64,000 bases of DNA from Escherichia coli (GCF_029227855.1 NZ_CP074356.1), one strand, 5' to 3'; counted from the first letter of the stretch, positions 1-33,088 are shown. Program-made: numbers and translations. The notes: generated by a model not told the origin, from the sequence alone.

Positions 1-1
1 T

Positions 2-739
2 CGTGTGGGTATGGGGGGCTTCAGTGCTCTGCGTCAGGTGCGTGAAGGGGCGGAATATAAATACGTCACCACCGGAGATAAACAGGCCACTATTGCACTG
101 GCGACCTATGGCGAGCTGTTCAGTATCACCCGTCAGGCCATTATCAATGATGATCTGAATATGCTGACCGATGTCCCGATGAAACTGGGCCGTGCGGCGA
201 AATCCACTATTGCCGATCTGGTTTATGCCATTCTGACGTCTAACCCGAAAATCTCCACAGATAATGTAAGTCTGTTCGATAAAGCGAAACATGCAAACGT
301 ACTGGAGAGCGCTGCAATGGACGTGGCATCGCTGGATAAAGCCCGCCAGTTGATGCGCGTTCAGAAAGAGGGGGAGCGTCATCTGAATATTCGTCCTGCG
401 TTCGTACTGGTACCGACGGCGATGGAGTCTGTTGCTAACCAGGTCATTCGCTCCTCAAGTGTCAAGGGGGCTGACATTAACGCCGGTATTATTAACCCGG
501 TGAAAGATTTTGCGACCGTTATTGCAGAGCCTCGTCTTGATGATAACAGCCAGACCACCTTCTACCTGGCTGCGTCAAAAGGCTCCGATACGATTGAAGT
601 GGCTTATCTCAACGGTGTGGATACGCCATATATTGATCAGATGGAGGGCTTCAGTGTGGATGGCGTGACAACGAAAGTGCGTATTGACGCCGGTGTCGCG
701 CCAGTTGATCACCGCGGTCTGGTGAAATGTACGGCGTAA
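2..739 (+). CDS. Phage major capsid protein, 3' portion (5' end lies upstream of the window)
   Basis: Frame is open from the first base; sits immediately upstream of head-tail joining and tail genes; C-terminal sequence resembles HK97-fold capsid proteins. The ATG at 5 is probably internal. Confidence 0.65.
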   Translation, partial: RVGMGGFSALRQVREGAEYKYVTTGDKQATIALATYGELFSITRQAIINDDLNMLTDVPMKLGRAAKSTIADLVYAILTSNPKISTDNVSLFDKAKHANVLESAAMDVASLDKARQLMRVQKEGERHLNIRPAFVLVPTAMESVANQVIRSSSVKGADINAGIINPVKDFATVIAEPRLDDNSQTTFYLAASKGSDTIEVAYLNGVDTPYIDQMEGFSVDGVTTKVRIDAGVAPVDHRGLVKCTA

Positions 740-763
740 ACGTCGCAGACAACAACTCTGATG

Positions 764-782
764 GCCCGTAAGGGCTTTTTTT
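764..782 (+). terminator. Short stem-loop (GCCC-GTAA-GGGC) plus T-run just after the capsid gene; a second 7-bp stem-loop lies at 793-814
   Basis: Hairpin followed by 7 T residues directly after the capsid stop codon; weak intrinsic terminator or attenuator. Confidence 0.4.
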
Positions 783-825
783 GTACCTGAAATCAGCCCC
801 TGAACGGGGCTGTGCGGAGACAGTT

Positions 826-1149
826 ATGGCAAAGAATTTTGTAGAAGAAGGAAAAACGGTGGCGATTGTTGCCAGTGCAGCCATCAGCAGCGGAGAGCTG
901 GTGCAGGTGGGTGATGTTTTTGCGGTGGCGCTGACCGATATTCCACAGGGTGAAACAGGCGACGGCATGACCGAAGGTGTGTTTATGCTGCCTAAGCTGA
1001 AAACGGATGACATGAAAACGGGTAAGAAGGTTTATCTGAAGTCCGGAAAAGTTCAGCTGACTAACAGCGGCTCTGATCCGCTGGTCGGGGTTGTCTGGGC
1101 AGATGCCGGAACCAGTGCAGAAGAAGTGCCGGTAAAACTCAATGTCTGA
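826..1149 (+). CDS. Small phage head-associated protein
   Basis: 107-aa ORF with a GGAGA Shine-Dalgarno, between the capsid and head-tail genes; the upstream ATG at 781 falls inside a hairpin. Confidence 0.5.
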   Translation: MAKNFVEEGKTVAIVASAAISSGELVQVGDVFAVALTDIPQGETGDGMTEGVFMLPKLKTDDMKTGKKVYLKSGKVQLTNSGSDPLVGVVWADAGTSAEEVPVKLNV

Positions 1150-1417
1150 TCCCTTTTCCCGGCTGGCAGCGCGTATGGATGCGATCACGGTCAGAAAGAT
1201 GGGAAAGACAGCCTCGATTAATGATGTCGATATGACTGTGATCCCGGGAGAAACACTGGCAGAGCTGAATGCTCTGTCCGGACCTGCGGTCTCTCTGGTG
1301 GTGTTTTCTTCGGGATACCGCCCACGGCGCGGGGATCGCGTTGTTTATGACGGACAACAATGGACGGTCACACGGCATGAACGCTTTAACGGTAAGCCAA
1401 TGATCTTTATTGAGTAA
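1142..1417 (+). CDS. Phage head-tail joining/adaptor protein
   Basis: 91-aa ORF whose ATG overlaps the previous stop; position matches lambda FII-type genes. Confidence 0.5.
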   Translation: MSDPFSRLAARMDAITVRKMGKTASINDVDMTVIPGETLAELNALSGPAVSLVVFSSGYRPRRGDRVVYDGQQWTVTRHERFNGKPMIFIE

Positions 1418-1428
1418 AGAGGTGTGGG

Positions 1429-2019
1429 ATGAAGGGGCTTGAGAATGCCATCCGCAATCTGAACAGCCTTGATACCCGTATGGTGCCACAGGCCAGCGCA
1501 TGGGCGATAAACCGTGTGGCACAGAAAGCGGTCTCGGTTGCCACCCGGCAGGTTGCCGGGAATACCGTTGCGGGAGATAACCAGGTGAAAGGGATCCCCC
1601 TGAAACTGGTACGTCAGCGTGTCCGGGTGTTTAAAGCCAGTCCGTCAGGAAAAATGACGGCCAGGATCCGCGTTAACCGGGGCAATCTGCCCGCCATCAA
1701 ACTGAACACAACACGGCGGCGTGCTGGTGAAGGACTGAGAGTGGGAAAATACTTTTTCCGGGGGGCATTTGTTCAGCAACTGGCGAATGGCCGCTGGCAT
1801 GTTCTGAGGCGTCTTCCTGAAGCGCGTTTTGCAACAGGGCATGACCATCAGGGCAGGCCAAGAAAAAATCGTCTTCCTGTGGAGGTAGTGAAAATCCCGC
1901 TGTCCGGACCGCTGACACAGGCATTTGAAGATGCCCGCGACCACATCATTGCTGCGGAAATGCCGAAACAGCTGGGGTATGCACTGAAACAACAACTGAG
2001 GTTATGGCTGACCCGATGA
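1429..2019 (+). CDS. Tail completion protein (lambda gpZ-like)
   Basis: 196 aa, close to lambda Z in size and position; stop overlaps the next start in an ATGA motif. Confidence 0.7.
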   Translation: MKGLENAIRNLNSLDTRMVPQASAWAINRVAQKAVSVATRQVAGNTVAGDNQVKGIPLKLVRQRVRVFKASPSGKMTARIRVNRGNLPAIKLNTTRRRAGEGLRVGKYFFRGAFVQQLANGRWHVLRRLPEARFATGHDHQGRPRKNRLPVEVVKIPLSGPLTQAFEDARDHIIAAEMPKQLGYALKQQLRLWLTR

Positions 2020-2417
2020 ACCGACATACACAAATCCGCCAGGTCGTACTGGCACGCCTTCGGGAACAGTGTGGAGACAGCGCCACGTTTTTTGACGGGC
2101 TTCCGGCATTTATTGATGCGCAGGAACTGCCTGCCGTGGCGGTGTGGCTGAGTGATGCTCAGTACACCGGAAAAATGACGGATGAAGATGACTGGCAGGC
2201 TGTTCTGCATATTGCCGTCTTCATCCGGGCACAGGCACCGGATTCAGAGCTGGATATGTGGATGGAGAGCACCATTTTCCCGGCCCTGAATGATGTACCG
2301 GCACTTTCCGGACTCATCGACACCCTGAACCCACTCGGTTTTAACTATCAACGTGATAATGAGATGGCCACCTGGGCGATGGCGGAAATCACGTACCAGA
2401 TCACGTACACGAATTAA
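2016..2417 (+). CDS. Tail terminator protein (lambda gpU-like)
   Basis: Shares recalled lambda U motifs (ATFFDG, PAVAVWL, PDSELDMWMES, PAL) and ends ITYQITY. Confidence 0.85.
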   Translation: MNRHTQIRQVVLARLREQCGDSATFFDGLPAFIDAQELPAVAVWLSDAQYTGKMTDEDDWQAVLHIAVFIRAQAPDSELDMWMESTIFPALNDVPALSGLIDTLNPLGFNYQRDNEMATWAMAEITYQITYTN

Positions 2418-2427
2418 GGAGGTGGTA

Positions 2428-3171
2428 ATGACCACACCAAATCCACTGGCAAAGACGAAAGGTGCGGGGACGACGTTCTGGATGTATACCGGCAACGGCG
2501 ATGCGTTTGCGAACCCTTTGTCGGACACTGACTGGCTGCGTCTTGCGATGGTGAAGGATCTGCAACCTGGCGAAATGACCGCTGATGCAGAAGATGACAC
2601 TTATCTCGATGATGAAGATGCAGACTGGAAAACGACAACCCAGGGGCAGAAATCCGTTGGTGATACTTCGGCGACGCTGGCCTGGCGTCCGGGTGACAGC
2701 GGGCAGAAAAAACTGGTTCAGTTGTTCGACTCCGGTGAAGTCTGCGCGTTTCGTATCAAATATCCCAACGGCACTGTTGATGTTTTCCGTGGCTGGCTGA
2801 GCTCACTGGGTAAAACCATTGCCTCAAAAGACGTGATGACCCGCACTGTGAAAATCAGCGGTGTGGGGCGTCCGTATCTGGCAGAGGAAGGCACTGAAAC
2901 CGTGAGCGTTACCGGGCTGACAGTATCACCGGCGTCTGCCAGTGTAAAAGTGGGAGCAACCACCACGCTGACCTTTACAGTAAAACCTGACGGAGCCAGT
3001 GACAAAGCGATCAGTGTGCATTCGTCAGATCCACAGACTGCCACGGTTACCCTGAACGGACTTGTGGCCACGGTAAAAGGCGTGAAGCAGGGCAGTGTCA
3101 GCATTGTGGGCATGACCGCTGACGGGAATTTTGTGGCTGTGGCTGCGGTGACTGTCAGCGCCGCAGGTTAA
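2428..3171 (+). CDS. Major tail protein (lambda gpV-like) with C-terminal Ig-like (Big_2) domain
   Basis: ATG at 2428 follows an AAGGAGGTGG Shine-Dalgarno; 247 aa; C-terminus is a Thr/Val-rich beta domain typical of V. Confidence 0.9.
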   Translation: MTTPNPLAKTKGAGTTFWMYTGNGDAFANPLSDTDWLRLAMVKDLQPGEMTADAEDDTYLDDEDADWKTTTQGQKSVGDTSATLAWRPGDSGQKKLVQLFDSGEVCAFRIKYPNGTVDVFRGWLSSLGKTIASKDVMTRTVKISGVGRPYLAEEGTETVSVTGLTVSPASASVKVGATTTLTFTVKPDGASDKAISVHSSDPQTATVTLNGLVATVKGVKQGSVSIVGMTADGNFVAVAAVTVSAAG

Positions 3172-3191
3172 CAGGACGATACTCATCATTT

Positions 3192-3219
3192 GCCCCGGTT
3201 ATCCGGGGCTTTTTTGCAG
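3192..3219 (+). terminator. Intrinsic terminator-like hairpin between V and G
   Basis: GCCCCGG-TTAT-CCGGGGC stem followed by TTTTTT. Confidence 0.55.
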
Positions 3220-3228
3220 GTGGAGAAC

Positions 3229-3618
3229 ATGATGTTTCTGAAACAGGGCACGTTTAATTATGAAAAACAGTCCGTGGTGCTCAGTGAGCTGTCCGGGCTG
3301 CAGAGAATTGAATATCTGGCGTTTGTTCAGCAGCGAACGGCAAAGTTTGATGCCGGTGAGGGAGAACTGCCGGAGGCTGAACGACAGATTGCTTTTCTGC
3401 GGATGGGGATGGATATCAATGCCTGGCTGGTTTCCCGCTCACTGTGGAATGCGGATCAGTCTAAGGATGTAGAGACGCTTTGCGCATCCGTTATTACAAC
3501 ATGGTCGTATGATGCCCTGGGTGCGGGGGCGGAGATGGTTCTGTCGCTGAGCGGTATGGGGGCCATTGATAATGCCGGGGATGATGAGCATGAGGCGCTG
3601 ACGCCGGAAAAGTCCTGA
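3229..3618 (+). CDS. Tail assembly chaperone (lambda gpG-like)
   Basis: 129-aa ORF; GGTGGAG Shine-Dalgarno before ATG 3229; sits before the tape measure gene. Confidence 0.85.
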   Translation: MMFLKQGTFNYEKQSVVLSELSGLQRIEYLAFVQQRTAKFDAGEGELPEAERQIAFLRMGMDINAWLVSRSLWNADQSKDVETLCASVITTWSYDALGAGAEMVLSLSGMGAIDNAGDDEHEALTPEKS

Positions 3619-3956
3619 CGCGGGAAATGCAGTTTGTCATGCGGCTTGCCCGGGAGTTCCGACGGGCAGACTGGCGGCGGATGCTGTCGGAAATGTCGGC
3701 CACTGAGCTTGGTGAGTGGGGCGATTATTTCCGGATGCAGAGCTTCAGTGATGTGTGGATGGATGCGCAGTTTGCCTCGCTGAAGGCATTGATCGTGAGA
3801 ATGGTGTCCGGCAGCAGTGATGCTGCGGTGGCTGATTTCAGCCTTTTACCGGAAGAGAACGGGATACCGGAGCGAACGGACGAAGAACTGATGCATCTTG
3901 GGGAAGGTATTTCCGGAGGTGTGCGTTATGGACCAGATAGCCAACCTGGTCATTGA
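3594..3956 (+). CDS. T-frame extension of the G-T fusion chaperone (reached by -1 frameshift from G)
   Basis: The -1 frame is open from 3594 and overlaps the last 8 codons of G; candidate slip site GGAAAAG at 3606-3612. Confidence 0.65.
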   Translation, partial: GADAGKVLTREMQFVMRLAREFRRADWRRMLSEMSATELGEWGDYFRMQSFSDVWMDAQFASLKALIVRMVSGSSDAAVADFSLLPEENGIPERTDEELMHLGEGISGGVRYGPDSQPGH

Positions 3957-6900
3957 TTTGGGGATTGATGCGGCAGAGTTTAAAAATGAAATCCCCCGTA
4001 TCAAAAACCTTCTGAATGGTGCAGCCAGCGATGCAGAACGGTCTTCTGCCCGTATGCAGCGTTTTATGGAGCGTCAGACTCAGGCCGCCCGGCAGACAAC
4101 GCAGGCGGCGTCTTCGGCTGCAACAGCCGCATCCGTCCATGCGCAGACAGTGGAGAAGAACGCACAGGCTCATGAACGCATGGCCCGCGAGGTGGAGAAA
4201 ACCCGCCAGCGCATGGAGGCGCTGAGCCAGAAAATGCGCGAGGAACAGGCGCAGGCCATGGCTCTGGCGGAGGCTCAGGATAAAGCGGCTGCTGCGTTTT
4301 ATCGTCAGATTGACAGTGTGAAACAGGCCAGTGCGGGGCTGCAGGAATTACAGCGTATTCAGCAGCAGATCCGACAGGCCAGAAACAGTGGCGGGATTGG
4401 TCAGCAGGATTATCTGGCGCTGATTTCTGAGGTTACGGCGAAAACCCGTGTTCTTACACAGGCTGAGGAAGAGGCTACCCGACAGAAAGTGGCGTTTATC
4501 CGTCAGCTTAAAGAGCAGGCAACCCGCCAGAATCTTTCTTCTTCTGAGTTGCTTCGTGCTAAGGCTGCCCAGCTGGGGGTAAGCAGTGCTGCAGAAGTGT
4601 ATATCCGCAAAATGGAGCAGGCAGGAAAAGCCACGCATTCGCTGGGTCTGAAAAGTGCAGCGGCCCGTCAGGAGATAGGCGTTCTGATAGGTGAACTGGC
4701 CCGCGGAAATTTAGGTGCGCTGAGGGGATCCGGAATAACGCTGGCTAACCGTGCCGGGTGGATAGACACATTGATGTCACCGAAAGGCATGATGCTTGGC
4801 GGGGTTATTGGCGGTATTGCCGCGGCTGTCTATGGTCTGGGTAAAGCCTGGTATGACGGTCAGAAGGAGGGGGAAGAATTTAACCGCCAGCTGTCGCTGA
4901 CGGGGCATTATGCCGGAGTCACTGCCGGGCAGCTGTGGACGCTCAGTCGTGCTATTTCCGGGAATGGTATCACGCAACATGCTGCAGCCGGTGCGCTGGC
5001 TCAGGTGGTGGGTAGTGGTGCATTTCGTGGAAACGATATCGGTATGGTGGCGAGAGCTGCCGCACAGATGGAGCGATCGGTTGGCCAGTCGATCAGCGAT
5101 ACCATAAATCAGTTTAAGCGGCTGAAGGATGATCCTGTAAATGCCGCGAAGGCTCTGGACAATGAGCTGCATTTTCTTACTGCCACTCAGCTTGAGCAGA
5201 TACGTGTCCTTGGGGATCAGGGACGGTCCAGTGATGCTGCACGGATAGCCATGTCTGCACTGGCAGAGGAAACCGGTCGGCGTACTGCGGATATTGATAA
5301 TAACCTCAATGCGCTTGGTAGTACGCTGAAGTATCTGTCTGATTTGTGGAGTCGTTTCTGGGATGCGGCCATGAATATTGGTCGTGAAGACTCGCTGGAT
5401 GAACAAATTGCCGCTTTACAGGAGAAAGTGTCGCGGGCGAAAAGACTCCCCTGGACGGCATCATCTTCTCAGGTTGAATACGATCAGCAGCGTCTTAACG
5501 ATCTTCAGGAGAAAAAACGCCAGAAGGATTTGCAGGATGCAAAAGAGCAGGCAGAGCGGAATTATCAGGAGCAACAGAAACGCCGTAATGCTGAAAATGC
5601 TGCACTGAACCGGATGAATGAAACTGAAGCAGCACGGCATCAGCGTGAAATTGCGCGTATTAATGCCATGCAGTACGCCGATCAGGCTGTCAGGGATGCG
5701 GCGATACAACGTGAAAATGAACGTTACGAGAAAGCCCTGGCATCCGGTAAGAAAAAAACACGCGAAACCCGTAATGATGAGGCCACCCGGTTATTGCTGC
5801 AGTACAGTCAGCAACAGGCACAGGTGGAAGGGCAGATTGCTGCTGCAAGACAGTCAGCAGGCATTGCCACTGACAGGATGACAGAAGCGCATAAACAGCT
5901 TCTGGCTCTGCAGCAGCGCATCAGCGACCTGGACGGGAAAAAACTGACGGCAGATGAAAAGAGTGTGCTTGCCCGTAAAGATGAACTGATTCAGGCATTG
6001 ACGCTGCTGGATGTAAAACAGCAGGAGCTTCAGAAACAGACGGCACTCAACGAGCTGAAGAAAAAAACAATTCAGCTGACCAGTCAACTGGCTGAAGAAG
6101 AGCGCGCTCAGCGTCAGCAACATGACCTGGATATCGCCACGGTGGGTATGGGTGATCAGCAGCGGCAGCGATATCAGGTACAACTGAGTCTTCGCCAGAA
6201 ATACCAGCAACAGCTGGAGCAGTTGAGGCGGGATAGTGAGCGGAAAGGGACATATAACACGGATGACTACAGAAAGGCCGAGCAGGCGCTGACGGAGAGC
6301 CTGAACCGACAACTGAGTGAGAATCGCCGTTACTGGCAACAGCTTGAAATTGCTCAGGGTGACTGGAAAAACGGAGTCCTGCGTGCACTCCAGAATGTCA
6401 CTGAGAATGCGGATAACACAGCCGGGACAGTGGAACAGTTGTTCACGTCTGCGTTCAGTAGCATGAGTGACTGGCTGGCGACATTCTGTACTACAGGCAA
6501 ACTCAATTTCAAATCCTTCACCTCTTCTGTGCTGTCAGATATGTCCAGAATCATGGCTCAGATAGCTTTAATGAAAGCGGTAAAAGGCATTGCTTCCGCG
6601 CTGCCTTTTGATTTTGTAGCTAATGCTGATGGCGGTGTTTATCAGTCGGCTGATTTGAGTCGCTACAGTGGCACGGTGGTTAACCGTCCGACGTTTTTTG
6701 CTTTTGCAAAAGGCGCGGGTGTGATGGGGGAAGCTGGGCCTGAAGCCATTCTGCCACTGCGTCGTGGTGCTGACGGTAAGCTGGGGGTTGTGGCGGATAT
6801 TGGTGGTTCAGGTATGGCGATGTTTGCCCCGCAGTACAACATCGAGATCAATAACGATGGCACGAACGGGCAGATAGGTCCGGCTGCCCTGAAGGTGGTT

Positions 6901-6984
6901 TATGACCTTGGGAAAAAAGCGGCAGCGGACTTTATGCAACAGCAGGCCCGTGATGGTGGTCGGTTAAGTGGAGCATATCGGTAA
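3928..6984 (+). CDS. Tail tape measure protein (lambda gpH-like)
   Basis: 1018 aa, coiled-coil rich; N-terminus (MDQIANLVIDLGIDAA) and C-terminus (NNDGTNGQIGPAALKVVYD) match recalled lambda H; GGAGGTG Shine-Dalgarno before 3928. Confidence 0.9.
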   Translation: MDQIANLVIDLGIDAAEFKNEIPRIKNLLNGAASDAERSSARMQRFMERQTQAARQTTQAASSAATAASVHAQTVEKNAQAHERMAREVEKTRQRMEALSQKMREEQAQAMALAEAQDKAAAAFYRQIDSVKQASAGLQELQRIQQQIRQARNSGGIGQQDYLALISEVTAKTRVLTQAEEEATRQKVAFIRQLKEQATRQNLSSSELLRAKAAQLGVSSAAEVYIRKMEQAGKATHSLGLKSAAARQEIGVLIGELARGNLGALRGSGITLANRAGWIDTLMSPKGMMLGGVIGGIAAAVYGLGKAWYDGQKEGEEFNRQLSLTGHYAGVTAGQLWTLSRAISGNGITQHAAAGALAQVVGSGAFRGNDIGMVARAAAQMERSVGQSISDTINQFKRLKDDPVNAAKALDNELHFLTATQLEQIRVLGDQGRSSDAARIAMSALAEETGRRTADIDNNLNALGSTLKYLSDLWSRFWDAAMNIGREDSLDEQIAALQEKVSRAKRLPWTASSSQVEYDQQRLNDLQEKKRQKDLQDAKEQAERNYQEQQKRRNAENAALNRMNETEAARHQREIARINAMQYADQAVRDAAIQRENERYEKALASGKKKTRETRNDEATRLLLQYSQQQAQVEGQIAAARQSAGIATDRMTEAHKQLLALQQRISDLDGKKLTADEKSVLARKDELIQALTLLDVKQQELQKQTALNELKKKTIQLTSQLAEEERAQRQQHDLDIATVGMGDQQRQRYQVQLSLRQKYQQQLEQLRRDSERKGTYNTDDYRKAEQALTESLNRQLSENRRYWQQLEIAQGDWKNGVLRALQNVTENADNTAGTVEQLFTSAFSSMSDWLATFCTTGKLNFKSFTSSVLSDMSRIMAQIALMKAVKGIASALPFDFVANADGGVYQSADLSRYSGTVVNRPTFFAFAKGAGVMGEAGPEAILPLRRGADGKLGVVADIGGSGMAMFAPQYNIEINNDGTNGQIGPAALKVVYDLGKKAAADFMQQQARDGGRLSGAYR

Positions 6985-7313
6985 TGGAGACGTTTCACTG
7001 GAAAGTGCGCCCGGATATGAATGTGGTATCAGAGCCGAAAGTGGTGACAGTGAAGCTGGGCGATGGTTATGAACAGCGTCGTGCGGCGGGACTGAATAAC
7101 CAGTTGTCGACTTACAGCGTGACGATACGTGTTCGTAAATGTGAACACCCATCTTTAAAAGCCTTTCTGGAACGGCACGGTGGCGTCCGCGCATTTCAGT
7201 GGACGCCACCTTATGACTGGAAGCCGATCAGGGTGGTTTGTCGTAAATGGTCGGCAAGCGTGGGGGCGCTGTGGGTAACCATAACGGCAGATTTTGAACA
7301 GGTCGTGGCATAG
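6984..7313 (+). CDS. Minor tail protein (lambda gpM-like)
   Basis: 109 aa, same length as lambda M; start overlaps the H stop. Confidence 0.9.
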   Translation: METFHWKVRPDMNVVSEPKVVTVKLGDGYEQRRAAGLNNQLSTYSVTIRVRKCEHPSLKAFLERHGGVRAFQWTPPYDWKPIRVVCRKWSASVGALWVTITADFEQVVA

Positions 7314-7322
7314 GAGGCCCTG

Positions 7323-8021
7323 ATGCAGGATATTCCACAGGAAACACATCATGAGACGACACGCCTTACTCAGTCAGCCCAGGTGGTGCTCTGGGAAATC
7401 GATCTGACAGAGGTCGGTGGTGAACGTTATTTTTTCTGTAATGAGCAGAACGAAAAAGGTGAGCCGGTCACCTGGCAGGGGCGGCAGTATCAGGTATACC
7501 CTATTCAGGGGACGGGATTTGAACTGAACGGTAAGGGTAGTGCTGCCCGTCCGACACTGACGGTCTCTAACCTGCACGGCATGGTCACCGGGATGGTGGA
7601 AGACCTGCAGAGTCTGGTCGGCGGAACGGTGGTCAGGCGTAAGGTTTACGCCCGTTTTCTGGATGCGGTGAACTTCGTCAACGGAAACAGCGACGCCGAT
7701 CCGGAGCAGGAGGTGATCAGCCGCTGGCGCATCGAGCAGTGCAGCGAACTGAGTGCGGTCAGTGCCTCCTTTGTGCTCTCCACACCGACGGAAACGGATG
7801 GTGCTGTTTTTCCGGGGCGCATCATGCTGGCCAACACCTGCACCTGGACCTATCGCGGTGATGAGTGCGGTTATCATGGTCCGGCTGTCGCGGATGAATA
7901 TGACCAGCCGACGTCCGATATCACGAAGGATAAATGCAGCAAATGCCTGAGCGGCTGTAAGTTTCGCAATAACGTCGGCAACTTTGGCGGCTTCCTTTCC
8001 ATTAACAAACTTTCGCAGTAA
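7323..8021 (+). CDS. Minor tail protein (lambda gpL-like)
   Basis: 232 aa, same length as lambda L; Cys-rich C-terminus. Confidence 0.9.
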   Translation: MQDIPQETHHETTRLTQSAQVVLWEIDLTEVGGERYFFCNEQNEKGEPVTWQGRQYQVYPIQGTGFELNGKGSAARPTLTVSNLHGMVTGMVEDLQSLVGGTVVRRKVYARFLDAVNFVNGNSDADPEQEVISRWRIEQCSELSAVSASFVLSTPTETDGAVFPGRIMLANTCTWTYRGDECGYHGPAVADEYDQPTSDITKDKCSKCLSGCKFRNNVGNFGGFLSINKLSQ

Positions 8022-8025
8022 TCCC

Positions 8026-8769
8026 ATGACACAGACAGAATCAGCGATTCTGGCGCACGCCCGGCGATGTGCGCCAGCGGAGTCGTGCGGCTTCGTGGTG
8101 AGAACGCCGGAGGGGGAAAGATATTTTCCCTGCGTGAATATCTCCGGTGAGCCGGAGGATTATTTCCGGATGTCGCCGGAGGACTGGCTGCAGGCAGAGA
8201 TGCAGGGTGAGATTGTGGCGCTGGTCCACAGTCATCCCGGTGGTCTGCCCTGGCTGAGTGAGGCTGACCGGTGGCTGCAGGTGCAGAGTGATTTGCCGTG
8301 GTGGCTGGTCTGCCGGGGGGCGATTCACAAGTTCCGCTGTGTGCCGCATCTCACCGGGCGGCGCTTTGAGCACGGGGTGACGGACTGTTACACGCTGTTC
8401 CGGGACGCTTACCATCTGGCGGGGATTGAGATGCCGGATTTTACGCGGGAGGATGACTGGTGGCGTCACGGTCAGAATCTCTATCTGGATAATCTGGAGG
8501 CCACAGGGCTGTATCAGGTGCCGTTGTCAGCGGCGCAGCCGGGCGATGTGCTGCTGTGCTGTTTTGGTTCATCGGTGCCGAATCACGCCGCAATTTACTG
8601 CGGCGACGGCGAGCTGCTGCACCATATTCCTGAACAACTGAGCAAACGAGAGAGGTATACCGACAAATGGCAGCGACGCACACACTCCCTCTGGCGTCAC
8701 CGGGCATGGCGCGCATCTGCCTTTACGGGGATTTACAACGATTTGGTCGCCGCATCGACCTTCGTGTGA
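8026..8769 (+). CDS. Tail tip assembly protein (lambda gpK-like; MPN/JAB and NlpC/P60-type domains)
   Basis: HSHPGG motif typical of JAB/MPN; placed between L and I; 247 aa, longer than lambda K, overlapping I by about 100 nt. Confidence 0.8.
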   Translation: MTQTESAILAHARRCAPAESCGFVVRTPEGERYFPCVNISGEPEDYFRMSPEDWLQAEMQGEIVALVHSHPGGLPWLSEADRWLQVQSDLPWWLVCRGAIHKFRCVPHLTGRRFEHGVTDCYTLFRDAYHLAGIEMPDFTREDDWWRHGQNLYLDNLEATGLYQVPLSAAQPGDVLLCCFGSSVPNHAAIYCGDGELLHHIPEQLSKRERYTDKWQRRTHSLWRHRAWRASAFTGIYNDLVAASTFV

Positions 8770-9308: not shown

Positions 9309-9368
9309 TGAAAAACGTTTTATGTGAAACCGCCTCCGGGCGGTTTTATCGTTTATGGAGCATGACGA

Positions 9369-12300: not shown

Positions 12301-12848
12301 CACCGGACGGGCGGCTGACGGCGAAAAATGCCGATATTAGCGGTAACGTGAATGCGAACTCCGGGACGCTCAACAACGTCACGATTAACGAGAACTGCCG
12401 GGTTCTGGGAAAACTGTCCGCGAACCAGATTGAAGGCGATCTCGTTAAAACAGTGGGCAAAGCTTTCCCCCGGGACTCCCGTGCACCGGAACGGTGGCCA
12501 TCAGGGACCATTACCGTCAGGGTTTATGACGATCAGCCGTTTGACCGGCAGATTGTTATTCCGGCGGTGGCATTCAGCGGCGCTAAACATGAGAGAGAGC
12601 ATACTGATATTTACTCCTCATGCCGTCTGATAGTGCGGAAAAACGGTGCTGAAATTTATAACCGTACCGCGCTGGATAATACGCTGATTTACAGTGGCGT
12701 TATTGATATGCCTGCCGGTCACGGTCACATGACGCTGGAGTTTTCGGTGTCAGCATGGCTGGTAAATGACTGGTATCCCACAGCAAGTATCAGCGATCTG
12801 CTGGTTGTGGTGATGAAGAAAGCCACCGCAGGCATCAGTATCAGCTGA
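9369..12848 (+). CDS. Host specificity / central tail fibre protein (lambda gpJ-like)
   Basis: 1159 aa; the first ~800 aa match recalled lambda J closely; the C-terminal ~300 aa differ. Confidence 0.95.
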
Positions 12849-12867
12849 ATTTTATAACCCATATACG

Positions 12868-12892
12868 GGCGCCAGAAATGGCGCCTTTTTTA
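12868..12892 (+). terminator. Intrinsic terminator after J
   Basis: GGCGCC-AGAAAT-GGCGCC hairpin followed by TTTTTTT. Confidence 0.6.
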
Positions 12893-12915
12893 TTGCAGAA
12901 AAGCGAGAGGTAATT

Positions 12916-13515
12916 ATGCGTAAAGTTTGTGCCGCCATTTTTTCCGCAGCCATTTGTCTGGCCGTATCCGGTGCGCCTGCATGGGCATCTGAACATCAGT
13001 CCACGCTGAGCGCGGGGTATCTTCATGCCTCGACGAACGTTCCCGGCAGCGATGATCTGAACGGGATTAACGTGAAATACCGTTATGAGTTTACGGACAC
13101 ACTGGGGATGGTGACGTCATTCAGCTATGCAGGAGACAAGAATCGCCAGCTTACCCGTTACAGCGATACCCGCTGGCATGAAGATTCCGTGCGTAACCGC
13201 TGGTTCAGCGTGATGGTGGGGCCGTCTGTGCGCGTGAATGAATGGTTCAGCGCGTATGCGATGGCGGGTATGGCTTACAGCCGTGTTTCGACTTTCTCCG
13301 GAGATTATATCCGCGTAACTGACAACAAGGGGAAAACGCACGATGTGCTGACCGGAAGTGATGACGGTCGCCACAGCGACACGTCTCTGGCATGGGGGGC
13401 TGGCGTGCAGTTTAACCCGACCGAATCCGTGGCCATTGATATTGCTTATGAAGGTTCCGGCAGTGGCGACTGGCGCACTGACGGTTTCATCGTTGGTGTC
13501 GGTTATAAATTCTGA
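12916..13515 (+). CDS. lom: Lom-like outer membrane beta-barrel protein (Ail/PagC/OmpX family)
   Basis: 199 aa with signal peptide, alternating aromatic beta strands and terminal Phe; sits after J as in lambda. Confidence 0.9.
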
Positions 13516-13541
13516 TTAGCCAGGTAACACAGTGTTATGAC

Positions 13542-13569
13542 AGCCCGCCGGTTCAGGCGGGCTTTTTTG
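13542..13569 (+). terminator. Intrinsic terminator after lom
   Basis: AGCCCGCC-GGTTCAG-GCGGGCT hairpin followed by TTTTTT. Confidence 0.6.
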
Positions 13570-14272
13570 TGCACAGAAAACCCCCAGCTAGGCTGGGGGT
13601 TCCGGAAAGCTTTCAGCTTTGAGCCAGTTATTAAAACCCCTTTTGATTTGTTAAAACACTTTGCGGTCTGGCAACTGCAAGTGTCAAACAAGAAATCAAA
13701 AGGGGGTCCCAATGGGGAACGAAAAGAGCTTAGCGCACACCCGATGGAACTGTAAATATCACATAGTTTTTGCGCCAAAATACCGAAGACAGGTGTTCTA
13801 CAGAGAGAAGCGTAGAGCAATAGGCAGTATTTTGAGAAAGCTGTGTGAGTGGAAAAGCGTACGGATTCTGGAAGCTGAATGCTGTGCAGATCATATCCAT
13901 ATGCTTGTGGAGATCCCGCCCAAAATGAGCGTATCCGGGTTTATGGGATATCTGAAAGGGAAAAGCAGTCTGATGCTTTACGAGCAGTTTGGTGATTTGA
14001 AATTCAAATACAGGAACAGGGAGTTCTGGTGCAGAGGGTACTACGTCGATACAGTGGGTAAGAACACGGCGAAGATACAGGATTACATAAAGCACCAGCT
14101 TGAAGAGGATAAAATGGGAGAGCAGTTATCGATTCCCTATCCGGGCAGCCCGTTTACGGGCCGTAAGTAACGAAGTTGGATGCAAATGTCAGATCGTGTG
14201 CGCCTGTTAGGGCGCGGCTGGTAAGAGAGCCTTATAGGCGCATTTGAAAAACCTCCGGCTATGCCGGAGGAT
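13568..14272 (+). mobile_element. IS200-type insertion sequence (IS200/IS605 family); boundaries approximate
   Basis: About 0.7 kb, a single Y1 transposase gene, left-end hairpin AAAACCCCCAGC-TAG-GCTGGGGGTT and a second stem-loop over the tnpA ribosome binding site. Confidence 0.65.
13712..14170 (+). CDS. tnpA: IS200-type transposase TnpA (HuH Y1 transposase)
   Basis: 152 aa with an HxH-type motif (HIHMLVEI) and the usual IS200 TnpA length. Confidence 0.85.
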   Translation: MGNEKSLAHTRWNCKYHIVFAPKYRRQVFYREKRRAIGSILRKLCEWKSVRILEAECCADHIHMLVEIPPKMSVSGFMGYLKGKSSLMLYEQFGDLKFKYRNREFWCRGYYVDTVGKNTAKIQDYIKHQLEEDKMGEQLSIPYPGSPFTGRK

Positions 14273-14290
14273 ATTTATTGTGGAGTGGAT

Positions 14291-16696
14291 ATGGCAGCAG
14301 TAAAAATCTCAGGTGTGCTGAAAGATGGTGCGGGAAAACCAATACAGAACTGCACTATTCAACTGAAGGCAAAGCGTAACAGCACCACGGTACTGGTGAA
14401 CACGGTGGCTTCTGAAAATCCGGATGAAGCCGGACGTTACAGCATGGATGTTGAGTATGGCCAGTACAGCGTCACCCTGCTGGTTGAAGGTTTTCCGCCT
14501 TCACATGCCGGGACCATTACCGTCTATGAAGGCTCCAGACCAGGTACGCTGAATGATTTTCTCGGTGCCATGACGGAAGATGATGTCATGCCGGAGGCAT
14601 TGCGTCGTTTTGAGGCAATGGTGGAAGAAGTGGCACGCAACGCCGAAGCCGCCTCTCAGAGCGCAGCGGCGGCAAAGAAATCCGAAACTGCAGCGGCATC
14701 ATCAAAGAACGCGGCGAAAACCTCAGAAACGAATGCAGCTAATAGTGCACAGGCGGCAGCGACCTCAAAGACTGCATCGGCAAACTCCGCGACAGCAGCC
14801 AAAAAATCAGAAACCAACGCGAAAAATAGCGAGACAGCCGCAAAGACGAGCGAAACCAACGCAAAGTCCAGCCAGACGGCAGCGAAAACCAGCGAAACGA
14901 ATGCCAAAGCCAGTGAAACTGCGGCAAAAAACAGCCAGGTTGCAGCAGCCCAAAGCGAGAGCGCGGCAGCCGGTTCTGCGACTTCAGCAGCTGGATCAGC
15001 AACTGCTGCGGCTAACAGCCAGAAAGCTGCGAAGACGAGTGAAACTAACGCAAAGTCCAGCCAGACGGCAGCGAAGACCAGCGAAACGAATGCCAAAGCC
15101 AGTGAAACTGCGGCGAAAAGCAGTCAGGATGCAGCGGCCCAAAGCGAGAGTGCCGCAGCCAGTTCTGCAAGCGCGGCGGCTGCTTCTGCCACTGCATCAG
15201 CCAACAGTCAAAAAGCAGCAAAAACCAGTGAAACCAACGCAAAGGCGAGCGAGACTGCGGCGGCGAACTCGGCGCAAGCATCGGCAGCAAGCCAGACAGC
15301 AGCTAAAGCAAGTGAAGACGCAGCCAGAGAGTATGCAAGCCAGGCAGCGGAGCCGTATAAATATGTCTTACAGCCACTGCCTGATGTGTGGATACCGTTT
15401 AACGATTCACTGGATATGATTACGGGCTTTTCGCCATCATATAAAAAAATTGTTATTGGCGACGATGAAATAACAATGCCTGGCGACAAGATTGTAAAGT
15501 TTAAACGCGCATCGAAAGCAACTTACATTAATAAATCTGGTGTGCTGACAGAGGCTGCCATTGACGAGCCACGATTTGAACGTGATGGCCTGCTTATTGA
15601 GGGGCAAAGAACTAACCTGCTAATCAATTCAACAAATCCGACTAAATGGAACAAGTCGTCAAATATGATCTTAAGTGCATCAGGTGTAGATGATTTCGGA
15701 TTCCAGTACGCAAAATTTACATTAAAACCAGAAATGGTAGGGCAAATTTCAGCGATTAACATAGTAACCGTTTCCGGCAGTAAAGGTTTTGATGTAACAG
15801 GCGGAGAAAAGTATGTAACCATATCATGCAGGGTGCAAAGTGGCACTCCAAATTTAAGATGCCGATTACGATTTGAAAACTATGATGGTTCTACCTACAC
15901 ATTCTTAGGTGACGCTTACTTAAATACGACAGATTTATCTATTGATAAGACGGGTGGTGCCGCTAATCGCATTACTGCAAGGGCTGTTAAAGATGAAGCA
16001 AGCAAATGGATCTTTTTTGAGGCGACAATTAAGGCACTTGATACAGAAAATATGATAGGTGGAATGGTTCAGTATGCCCCGGCAAAAGGAGTGGGCACTG
16101 GCGCGGATGATTATATTTATATTGCGACCCCTCAAGTTGAAGGTGGGGCGTGCGCTTCATCGTTTATTATAACAGGCGCATCCCCTGTAACACGCGCCAG
16201 CGATATTGTAACGGTCCCCATTTCTCTAAATTGGTGCAATCCCGCTATTAGTTCATTAGCAGAAGTTAATACCAATTGGGATGAATCGCCAAACAAAGAA
16301 GGTAGCGCACGTATTCTTAATATTTCCACTACGGGAGATACAACTGAAATTGCAGATGAAAGTTATATGTATTTGGGGTATACATCTTTGGGAGCACGCG
16401 CAATCATTACAAATGGTAAAGGCACTAAAATAGAATATAAAAGCGTTATAGAACGACCAGAGAGAAAAAGCATTATCGGCTTTAGATTCACAGAAAGTCG
16501 AGAATTGTGTGTTGTGGTTAACGGTAATATTGGTGCTAAGGTGGTTTCTCCTTATAAAAAACACAAATATACAGGAGGCTTCATTAATATTGGTGGTCAA
16601 TCATCATCCGGCAACCGTCACCTATTTGGACACGTTCGAAATCTGCGTATTTGGCACAAGGCATTGACTGATGCTCAGATGGGGGAGTCAATCTAA
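14291..16696 (+). CDS. stf: Side tail fibre protein: lambda Stf-like N-terminus, Ala/Ser/Thr-rich repeats, divergent C-terminus with LamG/concanavalin-like domain
   Basis: The first ~130 aa match recalled lambda Stf (MAVKISGVLKDG..QNCTIQLKAKRNSTT); the C-terminal region is AT-rich and ends in a LamG-type motif (NLRIWHKALTDAQM). Confidence 0.9.
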   Translation: MAAVKISGVLKDGAGKPIQNCTIQLKAKRNSTTVLVNTVASENPDEAGRYSMDVEYGQYSVTLLVEGFPPSHAGTITVYEGSRPGTLNDFLGAMTEDDVMPEALRRFEAMVEEVARNAEAASQSAAAAKKSETAAASSKNAAKTSETNAANSAQAAATSKTASANSATAAKKSETNAKNSETAAKTSETNAKSSQTAAKTSETNAKASETAAKNSQVAAAQSESAAAGSATSAAGSATAAANSQKAAKTSETNAKSSQTAAKTSETNAKASETAAKSSQDAAAQSESAAASSASAAAASATASANSQKAAKTSETNAKASETAAANSAQASAASQTAAKASEDAAREYASQAAEPYKYVLQPLPDVWIPFNDSLDMITGFSPSYKKIVIGDDEITMPGDKIVKFKRASKATYINKSGVLTEAAIDEPRFERDGLLIEGQRTNLLINSTNPTKWNKSSNMILSASGVDDFGFQYAKFTLKPEMVGQISAINIVTVSGSKGFDVTGGEKYVTISCRVQSGTPNLRCRLRFENYDGSTYTFLGDAYLNTTDLSIDKTGGAANRITARAVKDEASKWIFFEATIKALDTENMIGGMVQYAPAKGVGTGADDYIYIATPQVEGGACASSFIITGASPVTRASDIVTVPISLNWCNPAISSLAEVNTNWDESPNKEGSARILNISTTGDTTEIADESYMYLGYTSLGARAIITNGKGTKIEYKSVIERPERKSIIGFRFTESRELCVVVNGNIGAKVVSPYKKHKYTGGFINIGGQSSSGNRHLFGHVRNLRIWHKALTDAQMGESI
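14837..15214 (+). repeat. In-frame tandem duplication, 2 x 189 bp (63 aa each), inside stf
   Basis: Two near-identical 63-aa units (AAKTSETNAKSSQTAAKTSETNAKASETAAK...ANSQK) within a wider 9-aa periodic region. Confidence 0.8.
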
Positions 16697-16977
16697 TGAA
16701 AGATTTAACACTCAAATTTGCCGACAGGGCCGATTTTTCGGCCTTTATGGGAAGTATTGGCTATTATAATGACGAGTCGATGCAGGATGATATTCTGATT
16801 GATGTGATAGGTAACGTGTACAAAGAAACCGGAGAGCTGACTGAAGATGGCGAACCGGTATGTGTTAAGGAAGATGGATATTTTGTAAACGTGCGCATCA
16901 TTAAGGATACGCAAATATCGTCATTATTCGATGAATACGCGGTTGCTGTTGAGCATCAACTTCGTGGCTGGATGTGA
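16696..16977 (+). CDS. Hypothetical small acidic protein, translationally coupled to stf
   Basis: 93-aa ORF whose ATG overlaps the stf stop (TAATG); AT-rich; no family recognised. Confidence 0.5.
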   Translation: MKDLTLKFADRADFSAFMGSIGYYNDESMQDDILIDVIGNVYKETGELTEDGEPVCVKEDGYFVNVRIIKDTQISSLFDEYAVAVEHQLRGWM

Positions 16978-16986
16978 GGTAGAGAA

Positions 16987-17691
16987 ATGGCTACATCAAC
17001 AGTAATTCCGGGAGACATCACCACGCTGAAGGGAGATGTTAGTAAAGCAAAGGAAGATATTTCCTCTATTAACGGAAAAGTATCAACGCTTCAGACTGAT
17101 ATGGCCAGTGCAAAGCAGGATATCAGCACCAGATACACAAAAACTGAAGTTGATAATAAGCTGAAAAACAAAGTGGAAGTGAACGATCTGGAAAGTGGTC
17201 GTTATGGCGGAGATTTTTACCCGCTGACTGGCCGTGAAGCGTTTTATTTATGGGGATTGGGCACAACTACAGCGGCGGCAAATCTTTATCTTAATCCTGA
17301 CCCTGCAATTTCGTCTGTGCTGCGGTCAACATCGTCTATCCGCTATAAACATTCAGTAGAGACGATAGATTCAGAGCACGCCGATCTCATTTTCAGGATG
17401 CGCCCTGTGTGGTACAGGTCGCAATGCGAAAATGACAGGCGTGACTGGGGATTCTATGGATTGATTGCCGAGGAAGTTGGAGAAATTGCCCCTCAGTTTG
17501 TTCACTGGCGACCAGCCAACGAAGATGATGCACCGGAAACCATTTCCAGCAATGGCCTTGTTGCCGAAGGTGTAATGTACGAACGTCTGGTTGTTCCACT
17601 GATTCACCATATCCAGAAGCTGACTGAAAGAGTTGATGAACTTGAGTCAGAATTAAAGTTGTTATCCGTTTCCCGAAGCGATATCGGATAA
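16987..17691 (+). CDS. Short fibre-like protein: N-terminal coiled coil plus C-terminal intramolecular-chaperone (Peptidase S74-like) domain
   Basis: 234 aa; heptad-like N-terminus; C-terminal region has S-x-x-R-x-K (SSIRYKH), RPVWYR and GLIAEEV motifs resembling endosialidase chaperone domains. Confidence 0.55.
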   Translation: MATSTVIPGDITTLKGDVSKAKEDISSINGKVSTLQTDMASAKQDISTRYTKTEVDNKLKNKVEVNDLESGRYGGDFYPLTGREAFYLWGLGTTTAAANLYLNPDPAISSVLRSTSSIRYKHSVETIDSEHADLIFRMRPVWYRSQCENDRRDWGFYGLIAEEVGEIAPQFVHWRPANEDDAPETISSNGLVAEGVMYERLVVPLIHHIQKLTERVDELESELKLLSVSRSDIG

Positions 17692-17701
17692 AGGAGGCGT
17701 A

Positions 17702-17995
17702 ATGGATATAACACCTTTCCTTCATGCACTTTGTGCTGTGGCTGCGCAGGTACTGGTTGGTCTTTTTACCGGAAACTGGGCTTACGGGGCGATAGCTGGT
17801 TGTACGTTCTTCATTGCGCGTGAACATACCCAGGCAGAATATCGCTGGATTGAAATGTTCGGGCATGGCAAGCGTATGAATATGCCGTGGTGGGGCGGTT
17901 TTGATCCGCGTGCGTGGGATGTGGCAAGCCTGATGGATTTTGCTGTGCCGGTGGTGGCGTGTCTGCTGGTCTGGCTGTTGGTTAATCGTGGGTGA
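17702..17995 (+). CDS. Hypothetical small membrane protein (2-3 predicted TM segments)
   Basis: 97-aa ORF with hydrophobic stretches; GGAGG Shine-Dalgarno upstream. Confidence 0.45.
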   Translation: MDITPFLHALCAVAAQVLVGLFTGNWAYGAIAGCTFFIAREHTQAEYRWIEMFGHGKRMNMPWWGGFDPRAWDVASLMDFAVPVVACLLVWLLVNRG

Positions 17996-18005
17996 AAAAA
18001 GGTGA

Positions 18006-18125
18006 GCTGTATATGCAACGGAGGAAGAAACCTCGTTGCGGGAAGCCTTGAAGAAGTATCGGGTGTTGCTGAACCGTGTTGATACGTCAACTGCACAGGA
18101 TATTGAATGGCCAGCACTGCCGTAG
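18006..18125 (+). pseudogene. tfa: Tail fibre assembly (Tfa) gene remnant: only the conserved C-terminal ~39 codons
   Basis: Translation [29 protein letters not shown] matches the conserved Tfa C-terminus; the frame closes at a stop just upstream at 18003-18005. Confidence 0.55.
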
Positions 18126-18222
18126 GGTAAAACATATAAATTCTATAATTAGATGTATCTTTCCATTTACGGCAAGGAAGGGGGCTTGGAAGACGTAAGG
18201 CATCTCACACCGAGATTATTTT

Positions 18223-18813
18223 TTATATGTCAGGTGTCTGAAGTTTTGCTTTGGCTCTTAAAATGGTTTGCCGCGAGGTTTTGAATTCCCGGGCAATGGC
18301 ACTTATACTTACACCTGACTTAATCCGTTCGAATACCACCTGTTTCTGTTCTTCATTTAACACAGGTGGTCGACCAAAACGTTTCCCTGCGCCCCGGGCT
18401 CTTACTATCCCGGAATGAGTGCGTTCAAGTAAAAGGTCTCGTTCAAATTCAGCGACTGCTGAAATTACTTGCATCATCATTTTTCCTGTTGGACTGGTCA
18501 GGTCAATGCCCCCCAATGCTAAGCAATGCACTCTGATACCTGTTTCGGTCAGTTGTTCCACTGTTTTCCTGATATCCATTGCATTACAACCAAGGCGATC
18601 CAGTTTTGTCACAATCAATTGATCACCACATTTCAGGCGAGCAAGCAACCGGTTAAAACCAGGACGCTCACTGGTTGCTGCTGAGCCGCTAATGTGTTCT
18701 TCGATTATTTGCTGAGGTTTGATTTTAAAACCTGCACTTTCGATTTCCCGGCGTTGATTTTCGGTGGTCTGATCCAGCGTTGATATCCGACAGTAAGCAA
18801 AAATTCGAGACAT
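18223..18813 (-). CDS. pinQ: Serine recombinase / DNA invertase (PinQ/PinR-like)
   Basis: 196 aa; N-terminal catalytic region (YCRISTLDQ) and C-terminal helix-turn-helix; convergent with the tfa remnant, next to ydfK. Confidence 0.85.
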
Positions 18814-19129
18814 AGTGAGACTCTATACGAAATTGGTGTTCATATCATAATGCATCTCAGAAAATAATTTTGATTATTTTTTTGCATGTTTGTATGTACA
18901 CGTTCGAAAATAAACGAATGCGTATGCAACCCCGTAATTTTGGTGAGACCCAAAATCGATTTTGTGAAAAATGGCTTTAACTCGGTTTGTTTTTCGAGTT
19001 CCGGGCGGACTCAAGGAAGAAGAATAGTGTTGCGTGTTATTTTAACCAGATTTCAAGTTGTTTGGTCGTGGAAAAGTGGAGCAAAATGTTGTTAAAGTGG
19101 AAAAATGATAAAAAAGTAAGTTTATTATA

Positions 19130-19363
19130 TTACATTTTACCATTTAAATTTTGGTTGTCTTTAAGAACTGATATCGCTGTTTGTAATAATTCTTTGTTAT
19201 CCAGCCATGATTTGTTCTTTATGTTTCCTTCAATGTAATCAAGCAATGTTCTGGTATTGATAGGTCTTCCCTGTTTTGCTACTTCCACTACAGCATCCCC
19301 TAGGATAATTCTGACTTCAGGAAGCTGCGCAGGGAACCACTTTAGGGTGTCTTTTGATTTCAT
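19130..19363 (-). CDS. ydfK: Small prophage protein YdfK/YnaE-like
   Basis: 77 aa from the internal Met (MKSKDTLKWF...), matching the recalled YdfK length and its position next to pin. Confidence 0.55.
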   Translation of the reverse strand: MKSKDTLKWFPAQLPEVRIILGDAVVEVAKQGRPINTRTLLDYIEGNIKNKSWLDNKELLQTAISVLKDNQNLNGKM

Positions 19364-20147
19364 GAATATATTCCTTAAAATATTATTGATTTTCATTGCG
19401 ATATTGTATGTCTGATTCAGGATATGTTGACTTATACATCGGTTTTGTCTGGGTTATTGGATATGCCAATCCCTAATTTTATTAGAGCATGACTAAAAAT
19501 GCTGAATATGATAAGGAGCGAAGTGATTATCAGTATGCTGTTCATATAGCCTCGAATTAGTAATGTGTTATATATGATATAGTTGACAATTTTTATCCTG
19601 GGTGTTCTTAAAGTTCGTAGATAAACATTGTCGTTTCAGGTATACAGGAATGCTAACAGATGGCGGCAAAAATCAGGCGGTTTATGGCGCAAGCTGAAGT
19701 GGCAACTGCAAACTATCTTATGCAGAGACTCTACACGGATTGGGTTTAAAAGTATACATAGATAACAGTTTTTATCTGAAGAAGAAAAATATCAAGGTGA
19801 TATAGCCTATATGCCTTTGATGCGGAGGAATGAATGTGATGGGAGTGATGTATCTGAATAGTTGAAAAACCGCAGACACGCCTTATGCAAGAACGTGCTG
19901 CGGTTGGCTGGTAAATTTTTCGATAGTGCGAGTATTGAATGATTTCCAGCCGTTATTGATTTTACGCGTAACTCCATGAAAAAACTACTTATCTGTTGAG
20001 GAGTTTTTTGGGGCATATATGGGACAGAAATAGGCCCCAGATAGACACTGAGATCGAACTTAGGATGCTTTTTAAAAAATGCAACTATCTGAAAAAACCT
20101 AGAAAACGCCAAGGAAACCACAGGATGGGAAAAAACACCTGTGAATT

Positions 20148-31721: not shown

Positions 31722-31725
31722 ACCA

Positions 31726-32974: not shown

Positions 32975-33088
32975 GAATCTAATATTATTAAACTATTACC
33001 TGAACTAACTTTTCACACATCATAAAATGGATATGGCATACATGCTTTATTGGGATGTATAAATATCCAGAACAACAGGTATAAAAAA

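Follow-up and report, generated by a model that had tools for sequence, protein, structure and literature searches.

The stretch of Escherichia coli DNA analyzed here (GCF_029227855.1, NZ_CP074356.1; 64,000 nucleotides [nt], referred to as the window) opens inside a phage. Listing of the open reading frames (ORFs) and alignment to annotated genomes revealed that positions 1 to 20156 are a single unbroken block of phage late genes, all on the plus strand except pinQ, ydfK, and ynfT. This block very probably belongs to a temperate lambdoid siphovirus prophage from the Qin/mEp460 family, of which it forms the late-gene arm, and the prophage is integrated in the chromosomal gene ydfJ. A preliminary description of the same DNA had listed the late genes from the 3' end of the capsid gene through ydfK, and every one of these was recovered, in the order given, on the plus strand except for pin and ydfK. 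That list had overlooked an IS200C element at 13572 to 14282, three small genes after stf, the reduction of tfa to its last 36 codons, and the non-lambda type of the head, with its protease-capsid fusion.

The left edge of the window is crossed by a gene for a fusion of a ClpP-like prohead protease with the major capsid protein, of which the last 245 codons are present (2 to 739). This part is 100% identical in amino acid sequence to the C terminus of the "major head protein" of phage mEp460_ev081, matches phrog_133/4523 (head protease/major head), and is annotated as a fusion of protease and major capsid protein in the prophage of strain CFSAN061763. It is followed by a head decoration or cement protein with a DUF2190 domain (826 to 1149; 107 amino acids [aa]; phrog_122 over its full length, PF09956 Phage_cement_2, 98% identity to mEp460_ev081) and by a head closure or head-tail joining protein of the Gifsy-2 type (1142 to 1417; 91 aa; phrog_153, 100% identity to the mEp460_ev081 "Hc1 head closure protein"). 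These head genes are of another type than those of lambda, whose separate C/Nu3/D/E/FI/FII set is absent.

The tail genes, in contrast, form a complete set in lambda order, Z U V G T H M L K I J, followed by lom and a side tail fiber gene. The Z-like tail completion or neck protein (1429 to 2019; 196 aa; phrog_27) aligns with lambda Z over its full length (40%; E, 2e-37); the tail terminator U (2016 to 2417; 133 aa; phrog_37 over its full length, 98% identity to mEp460_ev081) is 53% identical to lambda U, and the major tail tube protein V (2428 to 3171; 247 aa; phrog_41 over its full length) matches lambda V at 55% identity across 246 aa. The tail assembly chaperone G (3232 to 3618; phrog_42) shares 33% identity with lambda G (E, 2.6e-15), and the chaperone frame T (3627 to 3956; phrog_39) shares 38% with lambda T. 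The tape measure protein H (3928 to 6984; phrog_24) has no internal stop and is 96% identical over its full length to that of mEp460_ev081, whereas it is only 25% identical to lambda H (E, 1e-48) and, at 1018 aa against 853, is 165 residues longer. The tail tip genes M (6984 to 7313), L (7323 to 8021), K (8026 to 8769), and I (8706 to 9308) are all full length relative to mEp460_ev081, match phrog_14/18/30/32, and encode products with 56%, 93%, 98%, and 80% identity, respectively, to their lambda counterparts. The central tail fiber or host specificity protein J (9369 to 12848; 1159 aa) is 84% identical to lambda J overall and aligns without gaps, at 99%, to J of phage PhiR55_1. Each tail gene was assigned the expected PHROG across its entire length.

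By BLASTP against lambda, Z through J produced reciprocal one-to-one matches in order, with E values from 2.6e-15 (G) to 0 (J), and the gene order Z U V G T H M L K I J lom stf tfa is identical in the two. The suggestion of a near-complete lambda tail module therefore held for gene content and order, with the essential Z-to-J set complete. It did not hold for sequence, since the identity is mosaic, with Z through M at only 25 to 56%, and the head genes are not of the lambda type. Inactivating lesions in the tail genes, which the preliminary description had named as the mark of a defective remnant, were not found: no internal stop or truncation was present in any of the ORFs Z through J, whose lengths equal those in the viable mEp460_ev081 and, for J, also that in PhiR55_1. 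The lom and stf genes are likewise free of stops and truncations, and no frame of the arm has an internal stop.

Among phages, mEp460_ev081 is the best match. Its DNA is 96 to 99% identical over most of positions 1 to 11834 and 98% identical over 18014 to 20156, and the late order of mEp460 and mEp460_ev081, from the capsid fusion to J, lom, stf, pin, ydfK, and ynfT, is the same as in the window. All tail proteins align with those of mEp460_ev081 over their full length at 80 to 100% amino acid identity; most of the proteins are 96 to 100% identical, with Z at 80%, I at 86%, and J, which differs in its C-terminal part, at 82% overall. For mEp460, both lytic and lysogenic ability have been confirmed (PMC9836094), and mEp460_ev081 has been described as a functional temperate phage with dicB, dicF, dicAC, and rem (PMC10448788). 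PhiR55_1 has a late module of identical gene lengths, but it is not related to this element in early region, integrase, or attachment site.

Direct reading of the sequence places T in the -1 frame with respect to G. This frame stays open through the stop codon of G, and a slippery-like heptamer, G GAA AAG, occupies 3606 to 3612. This context is conserved in the viable mEp460_ev081, in which T is 100% identical including the codons upstream of its ATG. The frame layout fits a putative -1 frameshift producing G and GT, as in the strategy used by lambda.

The right end of the prophage is an attR whose 11-bp core, TTATGGATTTC, lies at 20146 to 20156. The preliminary description had placed the end of the element where ydfJ opens, at about 20142 to 20148, and had proposed that the core be found by comparison with an uninterrupted ydfJ allele. 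That comparison yielded the core as the boundary between phage and chromosome, so the predicted end was right to within 9 bp. The truncated ydfJ ORF opens at 20148. The core is invariant in attB (strain 144), attL (CFSAN061763), attP (mEp460_ev081), and the attR of the window, and the flanks swap partners exactly there. Homology between the window and mEp460_ev081 stops at 20156, and mEp460_ev081 becomes homologous to the left end of the CFSAN061763 prophage 15 bp earlier. When the rspB-side fragment was joined to the window from 20157 onward, full-length ydfJ was reconstructed as a continuous frame that matches uninterrupted alleles at 99.8%. The empty attB junction is itself intact (99.8% identity) in 2011 of 5426 RefSeq complete E. 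coli genomes. A minus-strand ORF of 104 codons beside attR (19807 to 20121) had no PHROG match and an implausible sequence, and it was taken as a noncoding att arm.

Because the core contains the ATG of YdfJ Met28, a 5'-truncated ydfJ ORF of 427 codons survives from that native methionine (20148 to 21431, plus strand), with an in-frame TGA just before it (20142 to 20144). The upstream region of this ORF is supplied by the phage. Integration would have proceeded by tyrosine-recombinase site-specific recombination at the 11-bp core, within codons 27 to 30 of this MFS transporter gene, and would leave ydfJ without its promoter and first 27 codons. Qin is described as sitting at the 5' end of ydfJ and removing 28 codons (PMC6379469), and the site in the window agrees with the published Qin site between rspB and ydfJ.

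The cryptic K-12 prophage Qin (MG1655 1,632,277 to 1,652,745; 20.5 kb) shares this integration site and the same truncated 427-codon ydfJ. However, it is 98% identical to the window only over 18014 to 20147 (the 3' end of tfa, pinQ, ydfK, ynfT, and attR), and it has no counterpart of positions 1 to 18013, about 18 kb. It has lost the whole interval from nohA to the 3' part of stf, with the terminase large subunit, portal, and capsid genes, every tail gene, and lom. The earlier statement that K-12 carries only a decayed Qin remnant is borne out by this comparison. The element was likewise correctly described as Qin-type and inserted in ydfJ, as its right arm is 98% identical to K-12 Qin and its attR core is that of the mEp460_ev081 attP, of a relative's attL, and of the empty attB.

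The match to Qin in the window itself covers only 2.1 kb (18014 to 20147), with stfQ and all to its left lacking a DNA match. An unrelated lambdoid phage that shares only an integration module and attB with Qin would give the same picture, in which case the likeness to Qin would be a coincidence of site use and lambdoid mosaicism. JNEC-KY178, the closest chromosomal relative, lends this idea some substance: modules appear to be freely exchanged, because the prophage at that site in this strain differs in its head and tail-shaft genes and has diverged in its early region. We nevertheless consider the coincidence improbable, because in the CFSAN061763 prophage the blocks from int to cspI-gnsB match K-12 Qin at 87 to 99% in the same order. 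These blocks, which make up the early half, are int, exo, ydfD-dicB, ydfA, dicC, hokD-rem-ydfU, essQ, rrrQ-rzpQ, and cspI-gnsB; beyond the right arm, the early region is colinear with Qin in seven further blocks. Given this block-by-block agreement, K-12 Qin appears to have arisen by deletion from a phage of this type. In a published survey, prophages at the Qin locus ranged from 11 to 97 kb and carried capsid, tape measure, and host specificity genes, with many mutated copies of intQ (PMC6379469).

Near-identical prophages occupy the same locus in other strains. Those in ydfJ of CFSAN061763, CFSAN061768, 2D, MLI106K1, Ec-U18, and MRSN346647 are 99.9% identical to the window over all 19.4 kb of phage sequence, differing in that they lack the IS200C insertion. 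The CFSAN061763 prophage (99.95% identical), which was inspected in full, measures 46 kb from integrase to the truncated ydfJ and carries a Qin-type integrase gene, the dicA/dicC/dicB/dicF/rem region for immunity and division inhibition, and genes for terminase and portal. Those of JNEC-KY178 and 24A16CRGN010 are also full length, at 46 to 47 kb from int to the truncated ydfJ. The existence of full-length near-identical relatives favors a complete element in this strain as well.

Comparison with CFSAN061763 gave 9 differences over the 19,445 positions of phage sequence, and 8 of these fall within a 42-bp part of the stf repeats. In the neighboring chromosome (ydfJ-ydfI), in contrast, 18 of 2,121 positions differ (about 0.85%; Fisher P = 1e-12), the first of them 192 bp past the att core. 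The prophage is therefore about 18-fold less diverged than the neighboring chromosome. Because the same phage stands in different chromosomal backgrounds, these data suggest recent horizontal spread, most simply by infection. No genome other than JNEC-KY178 has a chromosome 100% identical to window positions 20157 to 45000, yet in the 47-kb prophage of this strain at the same site the head and tail-shaft genes are truly of the lambda type and the early region has diverged. This implies either a swap of the head and tail-shaft module or independent lysogeny within one host lineage. To the left of about 7.3 kb, the DNA of the window prophage is unrelated to that of JNEC-KY178 and essentially identical to that of CFSAN061763.

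We next consider the part of the arm to the right of the tail tip genes. When J was compared with lambda J in blocks of 100 residues, identity was 95 to 100% over residues 1 to 800 and 21 to 76% thereafter. The earlier remark that the J N terminus is nearly identical to that of lambda was accurate, and it is the receptor-binding end that differs. The C-terminal 260 aa are 98.5% identical to J of VT1-Sakai. Because this C terminus is unlike that of lambda, the receptor of J is probably not LamB; no receptor assignment for it could be derived from the matches to PhiR55_1 and VT1-Sakai J. The exact J protein is on record in 63 blocks, and the contigs among the matches listed either lack IS200 or end within or just after lom. 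The lom gene itself (12916 to 13515) encodes a 199-aa outer membrane beta-barrel protein of the Ail/Lom type, 44% identical to lambda Lom and 96% identical to Lom of mEp460_ev081, and a terminator-like hairpin lies beyond it at 13542 to 13563 on the plus strand.

IS200C (13572 to 14282, plus strand) was inserted directly 3' of this hairpin and 9 bp before the ATG of stf. It disrupts no ORF, and the ribosome-binding site and start codon of stf are untouched. Its features are those of the IS200/IS605 group: 711 bp added to the empty site (with a boundary ambiguous by 5 nt, TTGTG), no true target duplication, a position next to a hairpin, a single gene for a Y1 (HUH) transposase, and a structured 5' leader. 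The transposase gene tnpA (13712 to 14170, plus strand; 152 aa) is intact in translation, and the leader matches the Rfam family STnc490 at 13579 to 13702 (144.6 bits). The element is 100% identical to annotated copies in CFT073 and others. A reading as IS1, based on a 9-bp "target duplication," was rejected, as that duplication is an alignment ambiguity with one mismatch.

The insertion is absent from mEp460 and from the near-identical CFSAN061763 prophage. Elsewhere, 151 complete E. coli genomes have the lom-IS200-stf layout, judged by coverage of at least 80% of a 1.9-kb probe, and some of these copies lie in prophages at other loci, as in CFT073. The gap between lom and stf may be either a hot spot for IS200 or a place where one insertion has spread by recombination among lambdoid prophages. 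In lambda, Q-antiterminated late transcripts read through terminators, and Stf is dispensable. By analogy, Q-antiterminated late transcription in this element would read through the IS200 terminators, and loss of Stf would be tolerable anyway.

The side tail fiber gene stf (14291 to 16696; 801 aa) has no internal stop and matches phrog_1419 over its full length (1 to 793 of 793). Its product has an N terminus like that of lambda Stf, a middle rich in Ala, Ser, and Thr with 21-nt repeats, and a non-lambda C terminus. Identity is 61% to lambda orf-401 over residues 3 to 273 and only 62%, end to end, to Stf of PhiR55_1. Within the middle part (14700 to 15300), the 21-nt repeats, each encoding 7 residues rich in Ala, Ser, Thr, and Lys, are nested within repeats of 189 nt. 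Farther along, at 15362 to 15403, 8 substitutions within 42 bp separate the window from both CFSAN061763 and JNEC-KY178; from outside this cluster up to attR, CFSAN061763 has zero differences and JNEC-KY178 has one. The cluster looks like the product of a single gene-conversion event.

After stf, three small plus-strand genes (16696 to 17995) stand in place of tfa. They encode proteins of 93 aa (16696 to 16977; phrog_1361), 234 aa (16987 to 17691; C-terminal part of phrog_3299), and 97 aa (17702 to 17995; phrog_1443) and are annotated only as hypothetical. The 234-aa protein combines a coiled-coil-like N terminus, for which only weak Pfam matches were obtained, with a Peptidase_S74 intramolecular chaperone domain (PF13884; residues 116 to 172). 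The same sequence forms the C-terminal end of a 1385-aa fiber in other phages. The trio also follows an stf of this type (phrog_1419) in the isolated phages PhiR55_1, HannyBb, Tritos, and IdasGreatGrand. Lambda, in contrast, has a different Stf C terminus and different accessory genes, and mEp460_ev081 has a full-length tfa and another Stf C terminus where the window has its own Stf end, the three small genes, and a tfa stub. The stub (18015 to 18125, plus strand) comprises the last 36 codons, with 86% identity to lambda Tfa residues 156 to 191 and 92% to the end of mEp460_ev081 Tfa; in relatives, tfa is annotated as an N-terminally incomplete pseudogene.

Stf also contains a GTA_spike_fiber domain (residues 435 to 636). 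Apart from this "GTA head spike fiber" match and the intact tail genes, nothing specific speaks for a domesticated tail-like bacteriocin or gene-transfer device kept for host use. We give that explanation almost no credence, as the tail cluster is contiguous with capsid, decoration, and head closure genes and ends at a phage att site, the sequence is 95 to 100% identical to the late region of plaque-forming phages, and the relatives carry terminase, portal, and integrase genes.

On the minus strand, the arm ends with pinQ (18223 to 18813), ydfK (19130 to 19363), and ynfT (19432 to 19545), the last two being 98% identical in DNA to K-12 Qin and 99 to 100% identical in amino acids to mEp460_ev081. 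The 196-aa PinQ is an intact serine DNA invertase (phrog_125; PF00239 and PF02796) with 100% amino acid identity to the Ser recombinase of mEp460_ev081. A tail fiber segment inverted by Pin was considered and rejected, since neither crossover sites nor meaningful inverted repeats were found. No gix- or pix-like site of the AAACC-NN-GGTTT type occurs in 14200 to 18900 at up to 1 mismatch, the only inverted repeats are 14 to 22 nt long at 73 to 88% (none convincing), and no alternative copies of stf or tfa lie on the minus strand. By its sequence context, pinQ is an orphan invertase, intact and without a detectable invertible segment, as in mEp460.

Taken together, the late arm encodes a complete tail set of lambda architecture, in which Z and U supply the neck and terminator, V the tube, G and a putative GT the chaperones, H the tape measure, M, L, K, and I the tip, and J the central fiber. 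Its further cargo is the end of the protease-capsid fusion, decoration and head-tail joining proteins, the moron lom, a side fiber with three accessory genes, the orphan Pin, ydfK, and ynfT. As the preliminary description had proposed, the element may still be able to make tails. If its upstream half is like that of the full-length relatives (int, xis, DicA/DicC/Rem-type immunity, replication, Q, lysis, terminase, and portal), it would be inducible and would build tails and probably whole virions.

Several observations weigh against the assignment of the block to a temperate prophage of this family. The window starts inside the capsid gene, and any int, immunity, replication, Q, lysis, terminase, and portal genes of this strain would lie upstream of it. 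Open frames are compatible with IS200 polarity, missense changes, and promoter defects, and the G/T heptamer, G GAA AAG, resembles the canonical lambda G GGA AAG but differs from it. No 100% match to the whole 20.2 kb exists among the 5426 RefSeq complete genomes, the best with IS200 being 97.3%, and the Stf of the window has no exact protein on record. Decay does occur among the full-length relatives: stf is truncated in both JNEC-KY178 and 24A16CRGN010, and the tape measure gene of 24A16CRGN010 is frameshifted as well.

Part of this evidence bears on a further explanation, in which the element is a defective remnant, truncated or inactivated upstream of the window or carrying silent regulatory or missense lesions, that makes neither tails nor virions and is decaying like K-12 Qin. 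In its favor, the window does not reach the upstream half of the element, the same site in K-12 holds a 20.5-kb remnant (Qin), and an insertion sequence already sits inside the late operon. At this locus, pseudogenes occur in 24A16CRGN010 (tape measure frameshift and stf truncation), JNEC-KY178 (stf truncation), and CFSAN061763 (ydfR and ydfB fragments), and many mutated intQ copies and locus sizes of 11 to 97 kb have been reported (PMC6379469). Yet about 17 kb of structural genes run without a stop or frameshift, with only 9 differences in 19.4 kb from full-length 46-kb prophages. Furthermore, the roughly 18-fold lower divergence of the prophage than of its neighboring chromosome points to recent acquisition rather than long residence and decay. 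We therefore regard a defective remnant as unlikely, although it carries more weight than coincidental use of the Qin site.

We can put forward, tentatively and with somewhat less than even confidence, an active "live Qin": a functional mEp460-like temperate phage that would have lysogenized unrelated E. coli lineages recently, as the 18-fold difference in divergence suggests. IS200C would be tolerated because Q-antiterminated transcription reads through it, and the trio would substitute for Tfa as a side-fiber assembly module.

Three differences from MG1655 were observed in the chromosome beyond the prophage. A 6.3-kb island at 31711 to 37998, between eamA and marB and absent from K-12, encodes a GntR-family regulator, cellobiose-type PTS IIB/IIC/IIA components, a LamB-like carbohydrate porin, and a 6-phospho-beta-glucosidase. 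At 27222 to 27225, about 477 bp of MG1655, comprising most of ydeJ, are absent. About 500 bp at 46315 to 46814 are not in MG1655 and read as an N-terminal extension of dgcF (yneF), of which K-12 appears to have a shortened allele.

The element belongs to an already described group, in that live mEp460-type phages have been sequenced and near-identical prophages are annotated in RefSeq, and its importance beyond correct annotation is slight. It is an example of an IS200 resident within a phage late operon, and it may serve as a natural, undecayed Qin for studies of DicA/Rem/DicB/DicF regulation in a live phage. For E. coli, these results confirm what the literature and RefSeq annotation already document, namely, that in some wild strains full-size lambdoid prophages of mEp460 type, to all appearances intact, occupy the Qin site within ydfJ.

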